A DNA stretch of 51,462 nucleotides from a virus. Made by a program: the position numbers and the translations under genes. The stretch is taken from UHGV virus genome UHGV-0127437; one strand, 5' to 3'. Positions 1 through 51,462 of this stretch are shown here, piece by piece. The notes under the pieces were generated by a model. The model was not told where the DNA came from, made no database searches, and saw nothing but the letters and a program-made list of their open reading frames with translations. How positions within the stretch are numbered: the stretch's first letter is position 1; the number at the start of each line of letters is the position of its first letter.

Positions 1-49
1 ACATTGATGGGCTATGCCGGGCAGATACAATTCACGACAGACACTTTTT

Positions 50-1315
50 TCACTTCACACGCAAAAGGTCTTCATATCGAGTGGTGTATCGCGGTGAGAG
101 CATCTCCCGCTTCATCTGCCACTGCTGTTGTATGCCCTGTCCGGCGAAGTAGAGCGTACCTACGCCGTCTTTGGTGTTGAGATGATCCAGCACCTTCATC
201 AGTTTGTCGCTATTGCGCCGCGGCGCGTTATCATCAAAAAGGTTGAGTTGTGCCACCCCCTGGCTGAAGAAGTCGCCGAGCATAACGCCTGCCTTCTGGT
301 AACGGCGTCCATCTTTCCAGACAGCATCCAGGCATCGCGTGGCCGCGCCGATAATGTCCCGGCTGTCCTGCGTCGGGGTCAGAAGCTTCACAGAGGCGCT
401 GTTGCCGTAATACGGTTCGTTCAGTGCAAACGGGCTTGTCTTCACGAACGCGGAGATAAACCGGCAATATTGATGCTCGCCGCGCAGCTTCTCCGCCGCC
501 CGGCTGGCGTAACTGAAAATCGCCTGACGCATCTCTTCGTAATCAGTGATACGACCACTGAAGGAGCGTGAGCAGACGATTTCCTGCTTTACTGGTGCAA
601 ACTCTTCCAGTTCCAGACACGGCTCACCACGCAGCTCGCGTACCGTTCTTTCGAGCACAACATTGAAATGCTTCTTGATAAACCGGATATCTGTGTCAGC
701 CAGGTCAAGAGCAGTTTCGATGCCCATCCCCTCCAGCTTTTTAGAGATGCGTCGCCCTATACCCCACACCTCGCCAACTGGCAGCGCAGCTAACAGTTTA
801 CGCTGCCGGCCCACGTTCGATAAATCAACAACACCACCAGTCTGTCGTTGCCACTTCTTTGCCGCATAGTTAGCCAGTTTCGCGAGGGTTTTTGTCTGCG
901 CAATACCGACACCGACGGTGAGATGTGTACGCTGTAATACTGTAGTGCGGATCTCCCGGCCAAATTCAGTAAGATCACGGCAGTTTCGCACGCCAGTCAT
1001 GTCACAAAATGCCTCGTCTATGCTGTAAATTTCGACGCGGGGACTAATTTCTTCCAGCGTTGTCATTACGCGATTCGACATATCAGCGTAAAGCTCATAG
1101 TTACTGGAGAACGCGACGATGCCGTGACGGCGAAAAGTCTCTTTTTGTTTGAAATAGGGCTCCCCCATTTTAACAAAGGACTTCGCTGCTGCTGAACGGG
1201 CAATAACACAGCCATCATTGTTAGAGAGAACGACAACCGGCCTTCCTTTTAGGTCTGGCCTGAACACCGTTTCACAACTCGCATAGAAGCTGTTCACGTC
1301 TACGAGTGCAAACAT
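50..1315 (-). CDS. umuC: DNA polymerase V catalytic subunit UmuC (Y-family translesion polymerase)
   Basis: 421-aa ORF. The N-terminus MFALVDVNSFYASCE...VVVLSNNDGCVIARS is the UmuC/Y-family signature. It starts directly after the stop of the umuD-like ORF. Confidence 0.9.
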   Translation of the reverse strand: MFALVDVNSFYASCETVFRPDLKGRPVVVLSNNDGCVIARSAAAKSFVKMGEPYFKQKETFRRHGIVAFSSNYELYADMSNRVMTTLEEISPRVEIYSIDEAFCDMTGVRNCRDLTEFGREIRTTVLQRTHLTVGVGIAQTKTLAKLANYAAKKWQRQTGGVVDLSNVGRQRKLLAALPVGEVWGIGRRISKKLEGMGIETALDLADTDIRFIKKHFNVVLERTVRELRGEPCLELEEFAPVKQEIVCSRSFSGRITDYEEMRQAIFSYASRAAEKLRGEHQYCRFISAFVKTSPFALNEPYYGNSASVKLLTPTQDSRDIIGAATRCLDAVWKDGRRYQKAGVMLGDFFSQGVAQLNLFDDNAPRRNSDKLMKVLDHLNTKDGVGTLYFAGQGIQQQWQMKREMLSPRYTTRYEDLLRVK

Positions 1316-1317
1316 AC

Positions 1318-1734
1318 TCAGCCAGCAGACTTCACGATGTAAGTTACGACGCCGAAAACCTCCAGATTGTCTTCACTTCCAATCATGATTGGTTTATACA
1401 CAGAGTTTTCAGGCTTGAGCATGACAGCAGGATGCAGCAACAGGCGCTTAACTGTGAACTCACCGTCGACCGCTGCAATGACAATGTCCCCATGCCCTGC
1501 TTTTCGTGAACTGTCGACTACCAACAAATCGCCTTCGCCGATTCCGGCATCACGCATAGAATCTCCTGTGGCCTTCACGAAATACGTCGCGCTTGGGTGC
1601 CTCACCAGCAATTCGTTAAGGTCTATACGCGACTCAACATAGTCCTGAGCAGGGGAAGGAAACCCGCATTGCACAAGGTCACTAAACATTGGGAGCGCCA
1701 CATGGCGTAGATCTGTAGGCGTGAAAAACTGCAT
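1318..1734 (-). CDS. umuD: UmuD (S24 self-cleaving accessory subunit of Pol V)
   Basis: [13 protein letters not shown]...ATGDSM...[17 protein letters not shown] matches UmuD. The track start 1743 is a GTG. The ATG at 1734 has AAGGTG 6 nt upstream. Confidence 0.9.
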
Positions 1735-1752
1735 GATAATCACCTTAATTGA

Positions 1753-1772
1753 TACTGATTATATATACAGTA
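1753..1772 (-). promoter_or_regulatory. LexA (SOS) box in front of umuDC
   Basis: TACTGattatatataCAGTA is a CTG-N10-CAG palindrome 19 nt upstream of the umuD ATG. Confidence 0.85.
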
Positions 1773-2034
1773 TTATTGTATCAATGGCAGCGATCAAGTC
1801 TCTTAGAAGTACAACACGGTAAGTAACTGGCGTGAGGTGAAATTTAGTTTTGTGGGACATCATCGGCGACCTGCACTATCGAACGATCGCCAACTGGCCG
1901 CATCAGTGTCTTGCATACGCTCTGGTGAGTAAACTTGACGACCCTTCGCCTTTAACGCCCCTCTATCATGTATGTCGATCAAGTACCGCGTTAGTGCTAC
2001 ACTTGCACTCTTTCAGAATTCACTGATTTTTCAC

Positions 2035-2397
2035 ATGTTAAAGCTATTTAGTCGATATGTTTCGGTTGGTGTTGTGAACACCGCGATTCATTGGTTATGC
2101 TTTGCTGGTTTGCTTCACTTCTTTGGCGCCAGCCAGGCCATTTCCAATGTTACGGCATTTTGCGTGGCTGTAACTTTTAGCTTCTTCGCTAATGCAAAGT
2201 TTACTTTCAACTCTCAGGCTACGACCGGGCGTTACATTGCGTTCGTCGTATTCATGGGGGTTATGGCTATGCTCACTGGGTTTATCGCAGATCAACTCAA
2301 GGCACCACCGATTTTAACGCTTGTGGCGTTCTCGGCTTTCAGCCTGATCGCGGGATTTATCTACTCAAAATTCATAGTATTTAGGGATGCTAAATGA
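2035..2397 (+). CDS. gtrA: GtrA-family bactoprenol-glucose flippase
   Basis: 120-aa polytopic membrane protein ([20 protein letters not shown]...YSKFIVF) immediately upstream of gtrB with an overlapping stop/start. Confidence 0.8.
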
Positions 2398-3314
2398 AAA
2401 TCTCTCTGATCGTTCCGGTCTTCAATGAAGAGGCCACGATACCGATTTTCTACAAAACGGTTCGGGAATTCGACGAATTAAAACAACATGAAGTTGAGAT
2501 AGTATTCATCAACGATGGCAGCAAAGACACAACGGAATCAATTATCAATGCGCTTGCTGTATCCGATCCGCTCGTCATGCCATTATCATTTACCCGTAAT
2601 TTTGGCAAGGAGCCAGCTTTGTTTGCCGGGCTTGATCACGCAACAGGTGATGCTGTTATCCCTATCGATGTCGATTTACAAGACCCCATTGAAGTTATCC
2701 CGCATCTGATAGAGAAATGGCAGGCTGGCGCTGATATGGTTCTGGCTAAACGCACCGATCGTTCAACGGATGGAAGGCTAAAACGAAAGACCGCAGAATG
2801 GTTCTACAAGTTACACAACAAAATCAGCAACCCACAGATCGAAGAGAATGTGGGTGATTTCCGTCTCATGTCCCGTGAGGTTGTGGAAAACATTAAGCTA
2901 ATGCCAGAACGTAACTTGTTCATGAAAGGCGTTCTTAGCTGGGTTGGCGGAAAGACTGACGTTGTGGAATATGCCCGCGGCGAGCGCGTAGCTGGTGACT
3001 CTAAATTCAATGGCTGGAAATTATGGAATCTGGCTCTTGAAGGGATCACCTCCTTCTCAACGTTTCCGCTACGCATGTGGACATACATTGGCCTTTTTGT
3101 CGCAGGTCTGTCATTCCTGTATGGGGCATGGATGATTGTTGATAAGTTATTTTTCGGCAACAGCGTCCCTGGCTATCCGTCGCTGCTTGTATCAATACTT
3201 TTCTTGGGGGGTATTCAACTTATTGGGATCGGTGTTCTTGGTGAGTATATAGGAAGAATTTATATAGAAACAAAGAAAAGACCAAAATATATTTTGGGGA
3301 AACGCAAAAAATGA
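2394..3314 (+). CDS. gtrB: GtrB bactoprenol glucosyltransferase (GT2)
   Basis: [13 protein letters not shown]...INDGSKD...DVDLQDP is a GT2 DxD-type N-terminal domain. Two C-terminal TM helices complete the typical GtrB architecture. Confidence 0.9.
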
Positions 3315-4909
3315 GAATAACGAAGATTTTTATTGTCACTTTGACATTCATTGTTATAAGTCTGCCTTTATTTGGTCACTTCTGGACGTCAGGAGACCTG
3401 TCCGCCCATTATTATAGGCTCATATCTATAAAACATCAGTTGGAAACACATCAGTTTCCGATGTATTTCGATTTCGTAACTGATAACATGCAAGGGTATG
3501 GATATTCATGGAATTTATTTTACCCTCCACTGACAGCTTTTCTGTATACAATTATAGAGCTATTAAGCTTTAATAGCATTGATGCTGTTATACAGTTAAA
3601 AATAAGCATAGCAATAATCTCAGCAATAAATTTTTTTATTATGTATTTTTCTGTAAAGAGAATTTTCAACTCTTCACAAATTGCTTTTATCTCAGCGATA
3701 CTATCCGTTACATCATACTATTTTCTATACAATCAATACACTCGCTCTGCATTTCCTGAAGCTCTTGCTATGAGCTTTGTACCCTTGTTACTTTTGGGGC
3801 TATTTGGGTACATCAACAACAATAAAAATAAAATTTATTTACCATTGTCGTTTTCGTTAATACTGTTAACAAATATACCCGCAACCATTGTCACTCTTAT
3901 ATTTATAACTTTATTTGTAGTAATCTTTCATAAGAAATTCATAGAACAATATCGAGATGTAATTTTACATTCATTTATAGTTATTGGTATAACGTCATTT
4001 TTTATACTTCCGCTTTATTACACATCTAAAGGTGACATTTACGCCTTTACATCTATGAAATCAAGTTATGAATCAATGTGGAAGCTAACCATACCAGTTA
4101 TTAACTTAATCATACCGACAAGAACAACGGAGTACCCTTTCAGACTTATTACACCGGGATGGGTTATAATGGGGCTAATAATAGCCTTGTTCACCATGAA
4201 AAAAAATGGTGATAAATTATCTTCCATGCTTGATGGGCACCATAAGGTGGCTATTTCAATATCTTTATTATTCATAATAATGTGCTCACAAATGTTCCCA
4301 TGGAATCACATACCAAAACAGCTTCCGGTACTTAATTTCATTCAGTTCCCCTGGCGAATGATGCTTATATCATCGCCAATCCTGTGCATTTTCGCTGCTC
4401 TAACTCTTGTCAAAATCGCCCAAGAATCCCAAGGGAAGAAAGGTTTAATTTATATTGTCATATTTTCATCAATTATTCTTTCTATGTATGCGTCAACAAG
4501 TCCATTCGATAACAAGGCGAGACTGCCATGGTATCAAGTATATCTTGATTACATGCCTAACAACATGGCGAGAAAAATAAATGAAATTAAAAAAACCAAA
4601 AAAGAACCTATAGTGTTAAGTGGAAATGGAAGTATTGTAAGCGCTAGATTAACTGGCGGCTATCCAACATATAAATATATTTGCATGGATGATTGTACAA
4701 TTCAACTTCCTGTAATTCCTTATAGAGGATATGAGGTAGAAGGAGTTAAATCTTTTTCTGAAAACAACATGGGGTTGATGCAGGTTAACGTATCAAAAGG
4801 GAGTGGGCAAATAAATTTAAAATATAATCCAATTATTATCTACATATCATACGGAATTACGTTAATCACAATAATATTGTTGTTATATTTTACAAGAAGA
4901 AAATCATGA
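3311..4909 (+). CDS. GtrC-type serotype-specific O-antigen glucosyltransferase (large polytopic membrane protein)
   Basis: 532-aa, very AT-rich, multi-TM ORF in the third position of a gtrAB cassette. The call rests on position and architecture, not on sequence recognition. Confidence 0.6.
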
Positions 4910-18954: not shown

Positions 18955-19218
<264 letters not shown>

Positions 19219-19232
19219 AAGCCCTCCAAAGG

Positions 19233-19251
19233 AAAAGGGGCCGAAGCCCCT
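19233..19251 (-). terminator. Hairpin after the capsid gene (attenuator or mRNA stabiliser)
   Basis: On the minus strand: AAGGGGC-TTCG-GCCCCTT followed by a T-rich stretch, between the capsid stop and the next SD. Confidence 0.4.
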
Positions 19252-19265
19252 TGTGTGTGATGGTG

Positions 19266-20402
19266 TTAGCCCAGAAGCATTACTGCGTGGGCTGGTTTGA
19301 TGGAAGCCACGCCCCACGCCAGGCCAACTTCATAACGCACCTGACGGTACTGACGATACAGCGCGATCTGGAAGGTGATACCGGAAACTGGGTCGGTGAC
19401 ATTCATCACGTCATCAGCGGTGTCACCACCTTCCGGCATCGCCGGGGTACGAGAAGCCAGCAGAAATGCGTTGCGGTCAAACGCCATATTTGCAGTGAAA
19501 CCACCGACTACAGTGATAGCAACGCCGTCTGCCAGGTCCTGACGCAGCCCCGGTGCTGCCAGGGTGATAGTGGTAGCGGTCGCAGCAGCAACGACATACT
19601 GGTTATCGTCACCAGCGAAAGTCACAAGCTGGCCCGCAGCAATAGCACCCGTGCCGGTATCAATGGCAATAAGGATATCGCCTTCGGACTTGGCGCCATT
19701 CACCAGGTAACCAGCAGCTGTAGCGGCAGCAGCGCGCTTAACTCCAGCAGAACTGTGGATATTGAAGCCCTGCAGACGCCCCAGAACACCCTCACGCAGC
19801 AATTGTTCAGTCCCGGCTTCATTGACTTTGAACAGAACCGATTGCTTACCACGCATGTTGGCAATGGCGTCAGAATCAAGAACCATCTGCAGGTTAGTCG
19901 TCGGAGAGCCATTTTGTTCCAGAACTTTTCGGGTGTTTGCCGCGTCGGAAAGATCATCTTTGATGCCAAACGGGGTAGTGCCAGCAGTACCAACAGCGCG
20001 TGATGTACCGTAATAAAGTGCCCCCAGATCGGAGTCAACTTCGTTAGACAACGCGCGGAATGCCTGGGTGAACTGGTCGGCTAGGATAGTGTTGTAAGTA
20101 CCTGCCGGGCCGAGAGCCAGTTGTTCTTCACCGTTCCATTTGACCGGTGCCATTTTGGATTTGGTAATTTTTACATCGACAGTGCCAATGTTCTGATCAC
20201 CAGTATTCGGCGCAGACGGCCCCGGTACGATATCCTCGGTAACTGCTTCCGGTGCGACCGGCGCAGTTACTGTCTGCCCCTTCGCCGCTGCGTCTGCTTT
20301 GGTATTGCGCGCGACGGCAGGAATAAACCCCACCTGCTCACGAGAAACGATATCCAGAGCGGTATAGATAGTCGGGATCAACCCGGTCAGTGTATTCGAC
20401 AT
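19266..20402 (-). CDS. Major capsid protein
   Basis: 378-aa ORF after the scaffold gene. Its size, position and Ala/Gly/Thr-rich composition fit HK97-fold coat proteins. Confidence 0.8.
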   Translation of the reverse strand: MSNTLTGLIPTIYTALDIVSREQVGFIPAVARNTKADAAAKGQTVTAPVAPEAVTEDIVPGPSAPNTGDQNIGTVDVKITKSKMAPVKWNGEEQLALGPAGTYNTILADQFTQAFRALSNEVDSDLGALYYGTSRAVGTAGTTPFGIKDDLSDAANTRKVLEQNGSPTTNLQMVLDSDAIANMRGKQSVLFKVNEAGTEQLLREGVLGRLQGFNIHSSAGVKRAAAATAAGYLVNGAKSEGDILIAIDTGTGAIAAGQLVTFAGDDNQYVVAAATATTITLAAPGLRQDLADGVAITVVGGFTANMAFDRNAFLLASRTPAMPEGGDTADDVMNVTDPVSGITFQIALYRQYRQVRYEVGLAWGVASIKPAHAVMLLG

Positions 20403-44392: not shown

Positions 44393-44680
44393 ATGGAAAT
44401 CGTAAAAATCGAAATGAACCTGAAAGCAGTGAATAAAGAATTGGCTGTATTCAACTGCGAGAAGAAAGTATCAGGCGTTATTCATTCAGCCGAAACGGGC
44501 GCGGTCACGGTCATTCTTGACGGTGGCTATGTATTCGGCAAGTTCGACTGTCCTCTTTGTGCTGTAGAGGCAATTTCAATGCTGTCCGTAAAAGTAAGTG
44601 ATGGCGATAACGCCGGGTTTGGCAACTACCGCAGCTACAAACTCGATTACTCAGAAAAGGTTTTCAGCACCGTTCATTAA
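44393..44680 (+). CDS. Hypothetical early-left protein
   Basis: 95-aa ORF with GGAGAAG as SD. Confidence 0.5.
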   Translation: MEIVKIEMNLKAVNKELAVFNCEKKVSGVIHSAETGAVTVILDGGYVFGKFDCPLCAVEAISMLSVKVSDGDNAGFGNYRSYKLDYSEKVFSTVH

Positions 44681-44686
44681 GCAAAA

Positions 44687-44703
44687 GCCCACACGAAGTG
44701 GGC
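44687..44703 (+). promoter_or_regulatory. boxB-like hairpin GCCCAC-ACGAA-GTGGGC
   Basis: 6-bp GC stem with a pentaloop, in an 127-nt gap before the recE-like gene. It shares CACGAAGT with a PL-leader hairpin. Confidence 0.3.
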
Positions 44704-44807
44704 CTGCCCGTCCGGCGTCACCGACCAAAGCGAACCGGACATTTCTACCTGGTAAAACCGAGGTGCCATTAAGGCGCCTCCATTCTACACGAATTGAGGA
44801 TAAAATA

Positions 44808-47720
44808 ATGAGTGGAACTAATCCTGTATTTTTAGTCCGCAAAGCAAAGAAATCATCAGGCCAGAAAGATGCAGTTCTCTGGTGCAGCGATGATCTTGAA
44901 GCGGCAAATGCCACACTGGATTATCTCCTGATTAAATCCGGCGCAAAGCTGAAAGATTATTTTAAAGCTGTTGCCACTAATTTCCCCGTCGTTAACGAGC
45001 TTCCGCCAGAAGGCGAACTCAGCTTAACGTTCTGCGATTTCTACCAGCTTGGAAGCGACAACATGACCTGGGCGCAGATCCCCGGTGTTACGTTGCCCTC
45101 TTCTGATGCTGCCGCCGAAGCACGTCAGCATATCGTTAACGGTGTTGATACCGAAACAGGTGAAGTGCTGGAAGATCACACAGAAGAAGTTGTTGATACC
45201 GAAACTGGCGAAATTACCCAGCACGAACAGCCGTCAACTGAAGACAATGGCGATCGACCTGAACACCCTCAGTTAACTGTTGTGGCAACGATGCCCTTCC
45301 GTCATCGCGTTCTGGCTCAACATATTGGCGATGGCGAGTATCTCTATCATGTCGATGAAGAGCAGAAAAAAGCAATTCTCGCTCTGGAAATGGACACTGA
45401 TAACTCATATGTCCAGAACCTTTTACTTGCGTCTGAGAATGTTGAACCATTCAAAAAGGCCATTGAACACGATATCCATAAAGCGGTAAATGCTGTTAAG
45501 AACGTGTTTCCTGCCGATGGCAAAATCCCTGAGCTGGCAAGCGTTATCCAGTTTCTGAAAACATGGTTCGATACCCCTCATATTGATCGCGGGCTGCTCG
45601 TTAAAGAGTGGTGCAAAGGTAATCGTGTATCAGCTATTCAGCGTACTGAAAGCGGCGCGAACGCTGGCGGCGGAATTGCATCCGATCGCAAAATGCCCCA
45701 GACCACTCTCGGTCTTGAATTTGAAATAGCCTTAGGCCTGCTGGCGCGTCAGTATGAATTTGATATTTATTCTCTGCCATTGCAGATCGAACTAAAGGCT
45801 AATTCAATCATGAACGCAGTTGACGACCCTGAGTGGCTGGCAACGCGCGAACTGTTCGTGTCAATGCCTGGTGGTCTGGACTATTCCCGCGCATGCATCG
45901 TTGCAACGGTAAAAACCACACCAGATGAACTGTACAAATCCCCATTTCGCCACCGCGAGTACCTGAATAAGGTGCTGACAGAAACTGACCATGCCAATCC
46001 CGATCCGCTTGTCGTTGATATTGCCTGCGGACGTTCGTCCATGCCTATGCCAACGCCAGTAAGACAGGATGAACCATCCGTTGAAGAAGTAAACCGACAA
46101 CTCGCAGCTGCGCGCGGTGATTACGTTGAAGGTATCAGTGACCCTAACGATCCGAAGTGGGTTCATGAAGACTACAACGCCGCCTCAAATGAGGGAGAAA
46201 AAACGGAAAATGAGGACGTCGCCGATGTGCAGGTTCAAGAAACTGACGGTAATGAAGAACAGGCTGGTGATGCGCTGCGTACAAGCGAAAGCGATCTGGG
46301 GAATGGTGAAGAAGCAGATACCGGCGAACAAGCCGATGTAGACCACAATCAACCGGAAGTGAGCCAGAACAACGATTCTGCAAGCCATTCTGAGCCAGAA
46401 GCGCAACAGGAAGAACCAATGCCAGTGTGGCCGGAATACTTCGAGCCGGGGCGTTATGAAGGCGTACCGAACGAGGTATATCACGCGGCGAATGGCACCA
46501 GTTCGACGATGGTAAAAGATGCCCGGGTATCGCTGATGTATTTCGAGGCGCGCCACGTATCCAAAACCATCCAGAAAGAACGCACCAAAGTCCTGGATAT
46601 GGGGAATCTGGTGCACGCGCTGGCATTACAGCCTGAACAACTGGAAAAAGAGTTCAGCATCGAGCCGGAAATCCCGGAAGGTGCGCTCACGACGACAGCG
46701 ACGATCCGCGCGGTTATCGACGAACACAACGCCAGCCTGCCGGCATTACTCACCGCAGACGATATCAAAGCGTTGCTGGAAGAATACAACGCCACCCTGC
46801 CCGCGCCATTACCGCTTGGGGCATCCGTTGACGAAGCGTATGCGTCATATGAGCAACTCCCGGAAGAGTTCCAGCGCATCGAAAACGGGACTAAGCATAC
46901 AGCAGCGGCAATGAAGGCCTGCATCAAAGAATACAACGCCACCCTGCCGCCGCAGGTGAAAACCAGCGGAAGCCGTGACGCGCTGCTTGAGCAACTGGCG
47001 ATCATCAACCCTGACCTGGTCGCACAGGAAGCACAGAAGCCACAGCCGTTGAAAGTATCCGGCACCAAAGCGGATCTGATTCAGGCAGTGAAATCCGTCA
47101 AACCTGAAACAGTGTTTGCCGACGAGCTGCTTGACGCATGGCGCGAAAACCCCGGCGATAAAATTCTGGTTACCCGCCAGCAGTTGAGCACCGCGCAGGC
47201 CATCCAGAAAGCGCTGCTGAATCACCCGACCGCCGGGAAGCTGCTGACGCATCCGAACCGCGCCGTAGAGGTGAGCTATTTCGGTATTGATGAGGAAACC
47301 GGGCTGGAAATCCGCGTGCGCCCAGACCTTGAAATCGACATGGGCGGCCTGCGCATCGGTGCGGACCTGAAAACCATCAGCATGTGGAATATCAAGCAGG
47401 AAGGCCTGCGCGCCAAACTGCACCGGGAAATCATCGAGCGCGATTATCACCTGAGCGCTGCCATGTACTGCGAAACCGCAGCGCTGGACCAGTTTTTCTG
47501 GATATTCGTCAACAAAGACGAGAACTACCACTGGATCGCCATCGTCGAGGTATCCGAAGAGTTGCTGGAACTCGGCATGCTGGAATACCGCAAAGCAATG
47601 CGCGCCATAGCGAACGGGTTCGACACTGGCGAATGGCCAGCGCCGATTACCGAAGATTACGCCGAAGAACTCAACGATTTTGATGTGCGCCGCCTTGAAG
47701 CGCTGCGCGTACAGGCATAA
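44808..47720 (+). CDS. recE: RecE-like exonuclease VIII (C-terminal PD-(D/E)XK domain) with a long N-terminal extension
   Basis: 970 aa from the ATG at 44808 (GAGGA SD). The C-terminus (...GVPNEVYHAANGTSST...IRVRPDLEID...GADLKTIS...YHLSAAMYCE) fits the RecE-type nuclease. It lies immediately upstream of the annealase. Confidence 0.65.
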   Translation: MSGTNPVFLVRKAKKSSGQKDAVLWCSDDLEAANATLDYLLIKSGAKLKDYFKAVATNFPVVNELPPEGELSLTFCDFYQLGSDNMTWAQIPGVTLPSSDAAAEARQHIVNGVDTETGEVLEDHTEEVVDTETGEITQHEQPSTEDNGDRPEHPQLTVVATMPFRHRVLAQHIGDGEYLYHVDEEQKKAILALEMDTDNSYVQNLLLASENVEPFKKAIEHDIHKAVNAVKNVFPADGKIPELASVIQFLKTWFDTPHIDRGLLVKEWCKGNRVSAIQRTESGANAGGGIASDRKMPQTTLGLEFEIALGLLARQYEFDIYSLPLQIELKANSIMNAVDDPEWLATRELFVSMPGGLDYSRACIVATVKTTPDELYKSPFRHREYLNKVLTETDHANPDPLVVDIACGRSSMPMPTPVRQDEPSVEEVNRQLAAARGDYVEGISDPNDPKWVHEDYNAASNEGEKTENEDVADVQVQETDGNEEQAGDALRTSESDLGNGEEADTGEQADVDHNQPEVSQNNDSASHSEPEAQQEEPMPVWPEYFEPGRYEGVPNEVYHAANGTSSTMVKDARVSLMYFEARHVSKTIQKERTKVLDMGNLVHALALQPEQLEKEFSIEPEIPEGALTTTATIRAVIDEHNASLPALLTADDIKALLEEYNATLPAPLPLGASVDEAYASYEQLPEEFQRIENGTKHTAAAMKACIKEYNATLPPQVKTSGSRDALLEQLAIINPDLVAQEAQKPQPLKVSGTKADLIQAVKSVKPETVFADELLDAWRENPGDKILVTRQQLSTAQAIQKALLNHPTAGKLLTHPNRAVEVSYFGIDEETGLEIRVRPDLEIDMGGLRIGADLKTISMWNIKQEGLRAKLHREIIERDYHLSAAMYCETAALDQFFWIFVNKDENYHWIAIVEVSEELLELGMLEYRKAMRAIANGFDTGEWPAPITEDYAEELNDFDVRRLEALRVQA

Positions 47721-47732
47721 GGGGGAATAACA

Positions 47733-48821
47733 ATGTCCAATTTAGTCGCCACCACTGAAAACCAAACTCAGAAAATCGACAACGTTTCTATCCTGACGAA
47801 CGGGGAACTGTTCAACCGCCTGCGCACGCTTTCGGAGGTAATGGCCAACAGTGGAAACTTCGTCCCAGATCATTACCGGGGGAAACCGGACGCCTGCATG
47901 GCTGTTGTGATGCAGGCTGCGCGCTGGGGCATGGATCCTTTCGCTGTAGCGCAAAAGACTTTCATCGTCGGGAATTCCGGTGTGCTTGGTTATGAAGCGC
48001 AGCTGGTTAATGCGGTGATCAACACTATGGCCCCCACTAAGGATCGTATCCACTTTGAATGGTTCGGCGAATGGGAAAATATCGTTGGACGGTTCGTGGA
48101 GAAGACAAGCAGCCAGAATAAAAAGTACATCGCGCCGGGCTGGAATTTGAAAGACGAAGCTGGCGTGGGCGTTCGCGCCTGGGCAACGCTTAAAGGTGAA
48201 TCTGAACCGCGCGAGCTGGTCCTGATGCTTTCGCAAGCACAGGTACGCAATTCAACATTGTGGGCAACCGACCCACGCCAGCAGTTAGCCTATCTCGCCG
48301 TTAAACGTTGGGCGCGTCTCTACTGCCCCGACGTGATTCTCGGGGTTTATACCGCCGATGAGATTGACGAGCGTGAGGAGAAGGTAATCAACCCCTCGTC
48401 TGTTGAAAGGGTCACCATTGATGAGATTGCCAGCAGTGCGCGCACGACAGCCAGCGCGCAGGAATCAACTAAAAACATCGATCAGTTAGCCGACGATCTG
48501 CGTGACCGCATTGAAAAAGCAATGACGGTCGACCAGGCAAGCGCTATCCGCGGTGAAATCGAGACCGAAAAACCAATACTTGGCACAGCTCTATACACGG
48601 AACTGAAAAATAAGGCCGTTCGTCGTTATTACCTGGTCGATCACCGCAACCGGGTGGAAGCGGCTATCAATGCCCTGCCTAACCCGGGCGAACCAGAAGC
48701 GGCAGAACTGTTTGCTAAAGCTGAAGGCGTTCTCAATGCCGCCAAACGTCACTTGGGCGATGAACTGTACGACCAGTTCCGCATCACCCTGGACGACATG
48801 AAACCGGAATACGTGGGCTAA
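47733..48821 (+). CDS. recT: RecT/Red-beta-superfamily single-strand annealing protein
   Basis: ACMAVVMQAARWGMDPFAVAQKTFIV and WATDPRQQLAYLAVKRWARLYCPDVILGVY parallel the Bet motifs (IALLIVANQYGLNPW and WQSHPKRMLRHKAMIQCARLAFGFAGIY). Confidence 0.7.
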   Translation: MSNLVATTENQTQKIDNVSILTNGELFNRLRTLSEVMANSGNFVPDHYRGKPDACMAVVMQAARWGMDPFAVAQKTFIVGNSGVLGYEAQLVNAVINTMAPTKDRIHFEWFGEWENIVGRFVEKTSSQNKKYIAPGWNLKDEAGVGVRAWATLKGESEPRELVLMLSQAQVRNSTLWATDPRQQLAYLAVKRWARLYCPDVILGVYTADEIDEREEKVINPSSVERVTIDEIASSARTTASAQESTKNIDQLADDLRDRIEKAMTVDQASAIRGEIETEKPILGTALYTELKNKAVRRYYLVDHRNRVEAAINALPNPGEPEAAELFAKAEGVLNAAKRHLGDELYDQFRITLDDMKPEYVG

Positions 48822-48861
48822 GGGAGGCGGGAGGGCGGCCCCTCCCGTCACAGGGGGTTAT

Positions 48862-49101
48862 ATGCGCCTTATCAATCGCAGTAAGCAATCTCCGTTAGGT
48901 CGTCGGGCATGCGATGCAGCACTGGCAAAGCATGTTGAGCTTTACGGGGAGTTTGGCCGACAGAAAACAAAGACCACTTATACCGTGGCGGTCGACGGCG
49001 TGAAGGTGACAGTAGAAGTTGTTAACCGACATAAGAGCTATGTCGCCACCGCAATGACAGGTATGCGCCGACTGCGCGCACTGCCAGGGCAGATTGCCTG
49101 A
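48862..49101 (+). CDS. Hypothetical protein
   Basis: 79-aa ORF between recT-like and xis. Confidence 0.4.
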   Translation: MRLINRSKQSPLGRRACDAALAKHVELYGEFGRQKTKTTYTVAVDGVKVTVEVVNRHKSYVATAMTGMRRLRALPGQIA

Positions 49102-49124
49102 TAACGAATTATCAATGTCACAAC

Positions 49125-49150
49125 ACCGGCGCATCTATACTGGCGCCGGT
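49125..49150 (+). promoter_or_regulatory. 8-bp perfect hairpin upstream of xis
   Basis: ACCGGCGC-atctatactg-GCGCCGGT with no T-tract. It could be a processing or attenuation structure in front of xis-int. Confidence 0.3.
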
Positions 49151-49165
49151 TACCTGAGGTGAACC

Positions 49166-49381
49166 ATGTCACAGGTAATTTTTAACGAAGAGTGGGTTGT
49201 TGAGTCCAGACTTACCGAAAGAACAGGACTTACTGAAGGACAGATTAAAAATTATCGCCAGAAACTATGGGTTGAAGGTGTTCACTTCAAGCGCCTTACT
49301 GCGCTTGGACAGACTGACAACTCTAAAGGTCTGCTTTGGTACAACTACCCGAAGATTAATCAGTTAGTTCAGGATGCTTAA
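49166..49381 (+). CDS. xis: Excisionase-like protein (DUF1233/e14-type)
   Basis: 71 aa directly upstream of int and overlapping it. EWVVESRLTERTGLTEGQIKNYRQKLWVEGVHFKR resembles e14-type excisionases. Confidence 0.65.
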   Translation: MSQVIFNEEWVVESRLTERTGLTEGQIKNYRQKLWVEGVHFKRLTALGQTDNSKGLLWYNYPKINQLVQDA

Positions 49382-50667
49382 TGAAATACCCGACTGGTGT
49401 TGAACTGCATAACGGAAAAATCAGGATCACATTTATCTATCGCGGCATTCGTTGCCGCGAAGTTCTCCAGGGTTGGGTTGTCAACAGTAGCAATATTAAA
49501 AAAGCGGGCAATCTGCGCGCGGCAATTGTGAGTGAGATACAACTCGGTAAGTTCGACTACGCAGATCGTTTCCCGGAATCAAAGGCTCTTAAGAAATTTT
49601 CGTCCACAAAACGGATCTCCACATTCAAAGAACTGAGTGATTTTTTTACAGATACAAAGTCACTGGAGGTATCTGAAGCCACTTTGCTATCCATCACATC
49701 AGTCGTTAACACCCTGAAACGAGTCGTGGGCGAGAACACACGGCTGGTTGATATTCAGCACGCAGATATTCTGAATTACCGCAAAGAACTCCTGACCGGG
49801 GAGGTTTTCAACCCTTCAATGCCAAACCGCATCAAAAATGGGCGCGCGCCCTCAACAGTCAATAAACAGATGGCTGTTTTATCAGAAATGCTGAAGCTTG
49901 CAAACCGAAGCCAGTTTATATTGCATGCTCCTTATGAAGGAGTGTCGAGACTCAAGTTATCTAAAAATGATCCCGATCCACTTTTACTTCATGAGTACCA
50001 GGCACTGATAGCCGCCCTTCCCCGTAGCCAGGCATTAATCATCATTATTGCAGTGCATACGGGGATGAGGCCGGGCGAGATATGCGCACTGGCATGGGAA
50101 GATATTGATTTGGTAAAAGGTGAAATCCACGTATCCAGAAATTTGACGAACAAGCGAGTATTTGTACCCCCTAAAACAGATGCCGGGATAAGGACGATAA
50201 CGTTGCTGAAACCTGCTCATGATGCTCTGCTGGAGCAATACGAAATCACCGGGAACAGTCCAAAACAGGAAATTAAGTTTCATCATCGTGAGATCGGAAA
50301 AACTGAGCAGCAATATCTTCGCTTCGTTTTTTCACCGACATCATACTCGTCAACGAAAGGCGGTTACTTTTCCAAGGACTCGATTTCCTATGGCTGGAGG
50401 CGTGGAACTAAACTTTCAGGTATACGTGAGCGCAATCCATATCAGTCGCGTCACACATATGCCTGCTGGACGCTGATGGCCGGAGCGAACCCGTCGTTCA
50501 TTGCCAGCCAGATGGGGCATGAAGATGCGCGTATGGTGTACGAGGTTTACTCCAAGTGGATTGGTGACATGAACCAGGATCAGGTCAACATGCTGAACAA
50601 TCAGATGCCGACAGCACTGCCCCCAGGACGCCCCCACGGGCGAGGGAGTATGAAAAAAGTCATTTAA
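49381..50667 (+). CDS. int: Tyrosine integrase (lambda-Int family with N-terminal arm-binding domain)
   Basis: 428 aa. Catalytic-region motifs are HTGMRPGEICALAWEDID and SRHTYACWTLMAGANPSFIASQMGHEDARMVYEVYSKW. Confidence 0.9.
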   Translation: MKYPTGVELHNGKIRITFIYRGIRCREVLQGWVVNSSNIKKAGNLRAAIVSEIQLGKFDYADRFPESKALKKFSSTKRISTFKELSDFFTDTKSLEVSEATLLSITSVVNTLKRVVGENTRLVDIQHADILNYRKELLTGEVFNPSMPNRIKNGRAPSTVNKQMAVLSEMLKLANRSQFILHAPYEGVSRLKLSKNDPDPLLLHEYQALIAALPRSQALIIIIAVHTGMRPGEICALAWEDIDLVKGEIHVSRNLTNKRVFVPPKTDAGIRTITLLKPAHDALLEQYEITGNSPKQEIKFHHREIGKTEQQYLRFVFSPTSYSSTKGGYFSKDSISYGWRRGTKLSGIRERNPYQSRHTYACWTLMAGANPSFIASQMGHEDARMVYEVYSKWIGDMNQDQVNMLNNQMPTALPPGRPHGRGSMKKVI

Positions 50668-50737
50668 TTTCATAGCGCTGGTTTCAATCCACACAATCAG
50701 CGTTAAACTACTAATACCGTTAATTTAGGGAGAAAAG

Positions 50738-51412
50738 ATGATGCGCGTACTGGTTGTCGAAGATAATGCCTTATTACGCCACCACCTGAAGGTTCAATTA
50801 CAGGATTTGGGGCACCAGGTTGATGACGCAGAAGATGCAAAGGAAGCCGATTATTATCTTAACGAGCATCTGCCGGACATCGCCATCGTCGATTTAGGCC
50901 TCCCGGATGAAGACGGGCTTTCGCTGATCCGCCGCTGGCGCAGCAATGACGTTTCCCTTCCTGTTCTGGTATTAACCGCCCGTGAGGGCTGGCAGGATAA
51001 AGTGGAAGTGCTGAGCGCCGGCGCCGACGACTACGTGACAAAACCATTTCATATTGAAGAAGTGGTCGCGCGTATGCAGGCGTTAATGCGCCGCAACAGC
51101 GGCCTGGCCTCGCAGGTTATCTCTATTCCGCCTTTTCAGGTGGATCTCTCCCGCCGTGAATTGTCCGTAAATGATGAAGTGATAAAACTGACGGCGTTTG
51201 AATACACCATTATGGAAACGCTGATCCGCAATAATGGCAAAGTCGTCAGCAAAGATTCGTTGATGCTACAGCTCTACCCGGATGCGGAACTGCGTGAAAG
51301 CCATACCATTGATGTATTAATGGGGCGCTTACGCAAAAAAATTCAGGCGCGATATCCTGATGATGTGATTACCACCGTCCGTGGTCAGGGATACCTGTTC
51401 GAACTGCGCTAA
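50738..51412 (+). CDS. phoP: Response regulator PhoP
   Basis: 224 aa, near-identical in pattern to enterobacterial PhoP ([23 protein letters not shown]...[12 protein letters not shown]). Confidence 0.95.
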
Positions 51413-51462
51413 TGAATAAATTACTGCGTCATCTTTTTCCTTTATCGCTGCGCCTGCGCTTT
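51412..51462 (+). CDS. phoQ: Sensor kinase PhoQ, first 17 codons only (runs off the window)
   Basis: [17 protein letters not shown] compares with E. coli/Salmonella MKKLLRLFFPLSLRVRF. It has a TAATG overlap with the phoP stop. Confidence 0.85.
   Translation, partial: MNKLLRHLFPLSLRLRF

Follow-up and report, generated by a model that had tools for sequence, protein, structure and literature searches.

A lambdoid prophage integrated into the phoPQ promoter of Citrobacter koseri parts the PhoP box from phoPQ

What becomes of a self-activating operon when a prophage settles inside its promoter? The question is raised by the virus genome UHGV-0127437, a stretch of 51,462 nucleotides (nt), called here in its full length the window, in which the integrase gene (int) of a prophage stops 70 nt before the ATG of phoP, the first gene of the host operon phoPQ. 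PhoPQ is among the best-studied bacterial signalling circuits. An earlier reading of the letters alone (the original prediction) suggested that the prophage may have displaced or replaced the PhoP box through which PhoP activates its own operon. The open reading frame coordinates of int and phoP agree with it (Table 1), and the comparisons below establish that site-specific recombination has placed a lambdoid prophage, whose tyrosine integrase is of the Rac type, in the PhoP-activated promoter (P1) of phoPQ in Citrobacter koseri. The crossover overlaps the -10 hexamer itself, which refines the earlier account. Taken as one best explanation, the split of the promoter visible in the alignments together with the regulatory consequences that we propose for it is probably correct.

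The attachment (att) sites were defined by aligning the window with empty sites and with remnants that retain both ends. Same-species contigs were retrieved through the exact PhoP protein and came in three states. At empty sites (loci L001, L008 and L010, with PhoP 100% identical) purB is followed by a spacer of 168-170 bp and then phoP; in full prophages (L003, L006 and L007) int adjoins phoP; and in remnants of ~4.5 kb (L002, L004 and L005) both junctions are present. The prophage-free loci diverge from the window upstream of ~50691-50695 and carry a perfect PhoP box, and none of them has the sequence that the window carries upstream of 50691. The three sites read ...CCCCCCGGTTTACGAAATGTTTA-TCCCCGCCGCAA-CATAATCAGCGTTAAACTACTAATACC...ATGATG for attB, ...GTCATTTAATTTCATAGCGCTGGTTTCAATCCACACAATCAGCGTTAAACTAC... 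for attR in the window and ...GGTTTACGAAATGTTTATCCCCGCCGCAACA(C/T)AATCAGCGTTAGACTGCGAATGAAAAAAAT... for attL. The crossover falls within the 11-bp AATCAGCGTTA (50695-50705), which is the same in attB (L001, L008, L010), attL (L002, L004, L005, L038), attR (the window) and the deduced attP; attP can only be deduced because all informative IMG/VR contigs are integrated copies, and that collection yielded neither a free attP nor a circular form, all 49 of its contigs that reach past int continuing through attR into the phoP leader. A direct-repeat search within the window did not recover attL, whose core lies ~200 bp to the left of position 1. Its place is known from L038, a locus identical to the window over 10 kb, where the order is purB, PhoP box, attL core and window position 1; from core to core the prophage measures 50,896 bp.

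The base just before the core (window position 50694), third in the -10 hexamer, is T/C polymorphic. The hexamer reads CATAAT at empty C. koseri sites, CACAAT at every attR of C. koseri and CATAAT at attR in all other host genera; at attL the base is T in L002 and C in L004, L005 and L038. Excision would leave a CACAAT hexamer in some strains. Since Int, Xis and intact cores are all present, precise excision is possible in principle, and it would restore the native promoter. The arms of the att sites also carry candidate arm-type Int-binding sites: the motif GCCCCYA has 10 plus-strand matches in 51.9 kb, five of them in the two att arms, where two lie in the int 3' coding end (Table 1) and three lie 110-160 nt beyond the attL core on its right. 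Phage arm and att core are bridged by an imperfect inverted repeat, AGCGCTGGTT / AATCAGCGTT, whose loop measures 11 nt; it is kept as ACGCTGGTT in other hosts and may serve Int, integration host factor or RNA processing. We considered its halves as C/C' core sites flanking the overlap and rejected them, as this would put the crossover in sequence that has no counterpart in attB.

The empty C. koseri site carries the perfect PhoP box GGTTTAcgaaaTGTTTA, matching at 12/12 positions and ending 12 nt upstream of CATAAT; the box can also be read as GGTTTACGAAATGTTTA, 59-75 nt upstream of the ATG, in keeping with the distance of roughly 60-80 nt that the original prediction had expected. E. coli K-12 has the same layout, GGTTTATTTAATGTTTA followed by 12 nt and CATAAT, and a homologous leader, as the original prediction had judged from the letters next to the ATG. 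The E. coli purB-phoP spacer is 168 bp, against 168-170 bp at the empty C. koseri site. The closest known system is the phoPQ promoter region of E. coli K-12 and Salmonella, a PhoP-activated promoter with a constitutive one upstream (PMC3335776, PMC3750022). The Salmonella phoP promoter belongs to architecture I, in which a single direct PhoP box stands at 12 nt from the -10, and a 58-bp fragment of it is enough for Mg2+- and PhoP-dependent transcription (Zwir et al. 2012, PMC3335776). Distances of 12, 23 or 33 nt between box and -10 function there, while 7, 17 or 28 nt give little expression (PMC3335776). By our own reading of the sequence the native -35 agrees with the consensus at only about two of six positions, which fits the activator dependence of the native promoter.

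The core AATCAGCGTTA starts inside the -10 hexamer and reaches approximately to the transcription start, so that integration parts the activator site from the start of transcription. The box and all DNA upstream of it now stand at attL beside purB, ~50.9 kb from phoPQ; the box has thus been displaced, as originally predicted, and not deleted. In the lysogen phoPQ retains the -10-proximal bases and the leader, the only host DNA left in front of the operon, in contrast to the E. coli and Salmonella promoters, and it gains the phage P arm, consisting of the int 3' end and 27 nt. The architecture I direct repeat, (T/G)GTTTA-N5-(T/G)GTTTA, matches at 12/12 positions at the empty site and at attL and is absent from attR, where the equivalent position (50663-50679) holds the last int codons and 12 nt of phage DNA and agrees at 3/12 positions, which bears out the suggestion that the int 3' end occupies the place of the box. 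In E. coli the constitutive promoter P2 sits upstream of P1 (PMC3750022), and a P2-equivalent in C. koseri, if any, would hence be displaced as well. In the lysogen PhoP would no longer activate phoPQ directly, and positive autoregulation would be lost.

Could a substitute site have been brought in with the phage DNA? The original prediction had seen no tandem GTTTA box in the gap between int and phoP (50668-50737, exactly 70 nt), and a search for KGTTTA-N5-KGTTTA with up to 3 mismatches likewise gave no match in 50561-50740 on either strand. The lone TGGTTTC that it had reported is present, one position to the left of where it had been placed (50679-50685, not 50680-50686). Over the whole window the pattern has 148 matches against ~108 expected by chance, so weak box matches carry little meaning. 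The best box-like sequence upstream of phoP, TTCATAGCGCTGGTTTC, contains this TGGTTTC and ends 6 nt from the -10 hexamer; with 8/12 positions, and in a phase that would be non-permissive by the Salmonella distances (PMC3335776), it does not look functional. A near-consensus PhoP box with 1 mismatch, TGTTTATTGACTGTTGA, also lies on the reverse strand at 49852-49868 inside int, over the conserved peptide TVNKQM and ~825 nt upstream. Remnants at other loci (L029, L032-L034, L133-L223) still have copies of it in their tiny int fragments, where the distance to the core varies from -134 to -236 and mismatches accumulate; the genome-derived remnants were found by a search seeded on the peptide TVNKQMAV, and the presence of the reverse box in them is thus partly an ascertainment effect. 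For these reasons, namely variable distance, decay in remnants and detection biased by the seed peptide, we rejected the reverse box as a substitute regulatory site. That autoregulation is kept through a non-canonical or distant phage site, either the GGTTTC half-site (50680-50685) or the reverse box, is accordingly very improbable to us, even though copies of the latter survive and Perez et al. 2009 report a putative C. koseri box.

A second consideration is what might drive phoPQ once the box is gone. The phage arm brings a -35-like hexamer at the right spacing, so that the native promoter may be better described as replaced than as destroyed. Reading toward phoP there is an A/T-rich tract in the last int codons (50650-50668), then phage TTCATA (50669-50674) and, after 17 nt, CACAAT (50692-50697), which shares its last three bases with the core. 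These parts are widely kept: across 54 distinct attR sequences TTCAT stands at the -35 in 52 and CAYAAT at the -10 in 51, and the C. werkmanii orthologue, TTCATA-17-CATAAT, agrees with the consensus at 9/12 positions and is reported by the promoter scan. We propose that basal phoPQ expression would come from this hybrid sigma-70 promoter, with phage TTCATA, the 17-nt spacer, CA(C/T)AAT and the A/T-rich tract upstream, and that it would be independent of PhoP.

Phage transcription has to be considered alongside it. As originally predicted, phoPQ lies downstream of the int and early-left (PL-type) unit, with recE, recT, xis and int all on the plus strand toward phoP, and the gap appears to lack a terminator: intrinsic terminator prediction returned none in the int-phoP gap or the int 3' end. 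When the RNA of 50590-50745 is folded, the 50674-50704 repeat gives the principal hairpin, and this was dismissed as a terminator, having no U tract and a fold z-score of only -1.1. After induction, early-left transcripts would be expected to pass through int into phoPQ because nothing terminates them. In phage lambda, PL transcripts run across att into flanking host genes after induction. The likeness, from the arrangement of genes alone, is that int comes last before att and is co-oriented with the host operon with no terminator between; the difference is that the flanking operon here is a global regulator. One might go further and suppose that phoPQ is expressed mainly by read-through, from an int promoter or the early-left operon, and not from the hybrid promoter at attR. 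The shared orientation and the lack of a predicted terminator speak for this, but early-left and int transcription are normally off in a repressed lysogen, as is established for lambda, and remnants of 0.7-0.9 kb that are devoid of phage promoters keep an intact and conserved phoP behind the same arm. We therefore consider it unlikely.

The other end of the prophage is affected as well. The displaced P1 at attL is intact, and the first prophage genes past attL, umuDC, are convergent with it. We would expect it to fire toward the umuC 3' end as convergent antisense transcription, no terminator being predicted between the attL P1 and umuC.

In an Enterobacter-like clade (L032 and the L133-L223 loci) and in Scandinavium (L033/L034) only 0.7-0.9 kb of prophage is left between purB and phoP, with neither the attL core nor a PhoP box in direct orientation. 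Among sampled loci with two related leader types the phage arm is present in 23 of 23, and where purB is on the contig a remnant of 820-915 bp lies between purB and phoP, resembling that of 'E. cloacae M-7' (L032); no direct-orientation PhoP box occurs anywhere in the purB-phoP interval of these remnants. In remnant form the rearrangement has become fixed in at least one Enterobacter-like clade. The native box is present in another Enterobacter lineage, in agreement with Kang et al. 2019, who described a PhoP box in the E. cloacae phoP promoter and PhoP binding to it. Prophages have shrunk from 51 kb to 0.7-0.9 kb by several distinct decay paths, and the arm next to the core is kept in every occupied locus, which fits selection to keep phoPQ expressed from the arm; the arm may instead be conserved for recombination. 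Where the element still has a full int (L147, L220, L038), the promoter displaced to attL has stayed intact; its box or core is mutated or lost in the remnants L022, L195, L153 and the L032 clade. Such decay is expected once the promoter no longer drives phoPQ, and we read it as relaxed selection. PhoP itself is full-length and 94-98% identical in remnant-bearing genomes, which suggests that phoPQ is still used in these carriers.

Two remnants deserve separate mention. In L002 (5527-10000) all genes from the attL promoter to phoP are on the plus strand (Acyl_transf_3, DUF6418, xis and a truncated int), and the lipopolysaccharide-type acyltransferase may now be PhoP-controlled. In L009 (9780-10000), also from C. 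koseri, the prophage beside phoP is a different one, whose late and lysis genes lie on the opposite strand; of int it keeps only a 3' remnant, and the motif GCCCCCAGGAC is triplicated in this remnant.

The site is used far beyond one strain. The exact Int adjoins phoP in each of the 24 contigs examined that encode it, and one of these, the C. koseri genome CP000822 (L131), is identical to the window over 5082 nt. A scan of one genome per species gave 16 genomes with Int relatives (84-89% identity) or fragments, all ~73 bp upstream of phoP: Citrobacter (C. werkmanii, C. pasteurii, C. braakii, C. portucalensis, C. youngae, C. meridianamericanus and two further strains), Enterobacter (Enterobacter mori, Enterobacter genomosp. 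O, 'E. cloacae M-7' and Enterobacter sp. ECC-175), Lelliottia wanjuensis, two Scandinavium metagenome-assembled genomes and 'Bacterium BS0013'. The whole integrase family shares this attB, in hosts of the genera Citrobacter, Enterobacter, Lelliottia and Scandinavium. In C. braakii ATCC 51113 a second, truncated int copy lies upstream of the full int (L017 and L019, same contig, ~18 kb apart), which suggests tandem or successive integrations at one site. The integrase is absent from 5426 complete E. coli genomes by megablast and blastn of int, the best match being Rac intR at ~66-69% nucleotide identity over a third of int; the E. coli core, AATC-GCGTTAC, differs by a 1-nt deletion. The INPHARED phage collection has no record with this Int, its best match showing ~51% amino acid identity.

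To avoid ascertainment through int, metagenome contigs were scanned with a pattern that lies wholly downstream of the crossover (AATCAGCGTTAAACTAYTMATAC). Among 102 classifiable loci, of Citrobacter/Enterobacter type, the native PhoP box stands upstream of phoP in 34 and the phage arm in 68, and none has neither. The arm is joined to a full-length int in 28 loci and to an int remnant in 26, and in 14 the upstream sequence is too short to type int. Rough, non-random counts are ~11 empty places and 8 occupied ones among the long C. koseri contigs sampled, and 304 index blocks with the exact Int against 1509 with the exact PhoP. That the arrangement is a product of misassembly, or that a phage contig came to lie beside phoP by accident, is practically excluded: the identical junction is found in many independent complete genomes and metagenome assemblies, and both attL junctions and empty sites were recovered.

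Occupation could also be without consequence, phoPQ output in lysogens being physiologically equivalent to that in non-lysogens. The phage might simply have made a neutral choice of attB, a conserved landing pad of 11-15 bp, with the arm restoring enough expression and the loss of the box having no measurable phenotype. Occupation is clearly tolerated, with 68 of 102 loci occupied and remnants fixed in a clade, and it is established that phages commonly bring sequence that repairs the gene they target. In E. coli, autoregulation reportedly matters only at a very strong stimulus. On the other side, Salmonella deleted for its PhoP box does not grow at 10 µM Mg2+ (PMC2650801), and loss of the autoregulated P1 attenuates Salmonella virulence (PMC4778762, citing Shin 2006). 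A feedback-driven surge is, moreover, not something a constitutive promoter can reproduce. We regard neutrality as possible but rather doubtful.

It should be considered, too, what weighs against a split promoter with the consequences proposed here. Promoter activity, loss of Mg2+/PhoP dependence and read-through are predictions from sequence. The hybrid promoter of the window agrees with the consensus at 8/12 positions, just under the scan threshold, and was not reported by the scan. Conservation of the arm could stem from binding of Int, Xis or integration host factor and not from promoter function, and in the fixed-remnant clade column conservation of the arm is not clearly above that of neighbouring remnant DNA. 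In two-ended remnants of the L002 type the intact attL box could still drive phoPQ by read-through, by analogy with Yersinia. Finally, Perez et al. 2009 (PMC2650801) compared ten species, C. koseri among them, and report that only two PhoP targets are conserved throughout, phoPQ autoregulation being one, with putative PhoP sites in the phoP promoters of all ten; a box accepted there may exist and yet score poorly in our consensus search. The only C. koseri genome in a 2007 genome list is the lysogen CP000822, which may be the genome used by Perez et al.

Full-text literature searches for a prophage or integrase at purB-phoP or upstream of phoP found no description of such an insertion. Yersinia pestis, too, has no box immediately upstream of phoP owing to a cis-regulatory rearrangement, and it retains autoregulation by way of a PhoP-dependent promoter that precedes the co-oriented neighbour y1795 (PMC2650801); in the window, by contrast, the box has been moved 50.9 kb off and the prophage genes next to it are convergent with it. 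Among integrases of sequenced phages Rac IntR comes closest, at only ~50% amino acid identity to the Int of the window. The module resembles Rac IntR and lambda-type modules in its arm-binding and recombinase domains, its adjoining excisionase, the place of int as last early-left gene by att, and RecE/RecT upstream. Rac has its attB in ttcA, unlike this phage, which uses the phoP promoter. Phage regulatory switches, or active lysogeny, are known from Listeria phi10403S in comK and from Streptococcus pyogenes SpyCIM1 upstream of mutL. There, as here, a temperate element uncouples a host gene from its own expression signals, and precise excision would restore them. The differences are that here the coding sequence is untouched, the cut falls between activator site and -10, a substitute -35 has apparently been brought, and the case is known from the change in the cis-element alone. 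We class the element as a prophage of lambda type that uses a new attB and is related in kind to these switches.

We tentatively suggest, at somewhat less than even confidence, that elements of this integrase family naturally swap the promoter of a master regulator, abolishing autoregulation and supplying a phage-borne constitutive promoter instead, in a way that excision would reverse. If this is true, PhoPQ dynamics would differ between strains and clades, in Citrobacter and in the Enterobacter cloacae complex, by the state of one site, and the affected traits would be the induction surge, growth at low Mg2+ and heteroresistance to antimicrobial peptides or colistin. The PhoP-activated promoter at attL would likewise put the prophage end, antisense to umuDC or, in remnants, the cargo, under host Mg2+ sensing. 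CP000822 can be seen as a natural mutant of the PhoP box cis-element made by a prophage, which bears on the published claim of conserved phoPQ autoregulation in enteric species including C. koseri, and lysogen, remnant and empty site form natural isogenic-like sets for testing the purpose of autoregulation. A PhoP box upstream of phoP should not be assumed in Citrobacter or Enterobacter. The state of the phoP upstream region is a simple genotype to compare with strain- or cluster-dependent PhoPQ phenotypes, a link to colistin heteroresistance being speculation.

Table 1. Position, strand and basis of the features discussed, in window coordinates.
Feature	Position	Strand	Basis or remark
Lambdoid prophage body, apparently complete	1-50694		PHROGs and Pfam
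umuC	50-1315	-	Pfam IMS/IMS_C on identical genes in L037-L042
umuD	1318-1743	-	Pfam Peptidase_S24 on identical genes in L037-L042
recE-like	44598-47720	+	Early-left operon (44598-49381) toward int/phoP; open reading frames and Pfam
recT	47733-48821	+	Early-left operon; open reading frames and Pfam
DUF4060	48862-49101	+	Early-left operon; open reading frames and Pfam
Excisionase-like DUF1233	49166-49381	+	PF06806 putative excisionase on 49166-49378
int, tyrosine integrase, 428 amino acids	49381-50667	+	Stop TAA 50665-50667; open reading frame list
GCCCCCA motifs (two)	50619-50625, 50630-50636	+	In int 3' coding end; candidate arm-type Int sites, P arm
Candidate hybrid sigma-70 promoter	50650-50697	+	A/T-rich tract, -35-like hexamer, 17-nt spacer, -10
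Best PhoP-box-like sequence	50669-50685	+	8/12, best in 50560-50737
Imperfect inverted repeat	50674-50683 / 50695-50704	+	11-nt loop; joins phage arm to att core
attR core	50691-50705		15 bp ACACAATCAGCGTTA common to attL and attR of this lysogen type
Host-derived phoP leader	50706-50737	+	Shine-Dalgarno GGGAG 50728-50732
phoP, response regulator, 224 amino acids	50738-51412	+	Pfam Response_reg and Trans_reg_C
phoQ start, cut by window end	51412-51462	+	Order in same-species loci

Pfam finds PF12167 Arm-DNA-bind_2 (E 2e-25) and PF00589 Phage_integrase (E 3e-17) in int (49381-50664), so that the prophage ends in a tyrosine recombinase with an N-terminal arm-binding domain and an adjoining excisionase gene. 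PHROGs and Pfam further identify genes for the terminase large subunit, portal, major head, tape measure and tail proteins, a tailspike, O/P-like replication proteins, RecE/RecT, excisionase and integrase. With its virion, lysis and replication set the prophage is apparently structurally complete and potentially inducible. On the host side, PhoP of the window has 95% amino acid identity to E. coli PhoP; its ATG at 50738 is followed by a second in-frame ATG at 50741, the counterpart of the E. coli start. The phoP leader is the same at empty and occupied sites, and phoQ (487 amino acids; PhoQ_Sensor/HAMP/HATPase_c) begins on the last base of the phoP stop in all same-species loci.

Some minor observations concern the rest of the prophage. 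The cargo at the attL end (1-4909) consists of umuDC on the minus strand and a gtrA/gtrB/gtrC-type O-antigen glucosylation module on the plus strand, and sister prophages at the same site have an Acyl_transf_3 gene in place of gtrABC. A run of tandem CTCCTG units in 12-nt-spaced copies (19067-19143), assigned to overlapping open reading frames at 19251-20402, may be a low-complexity linker of a head-region protein. Inside the recE-like gene, three diverged 55-nt direct repeats (46692-46953) encode (E)YNA(T/S)LP repeats.

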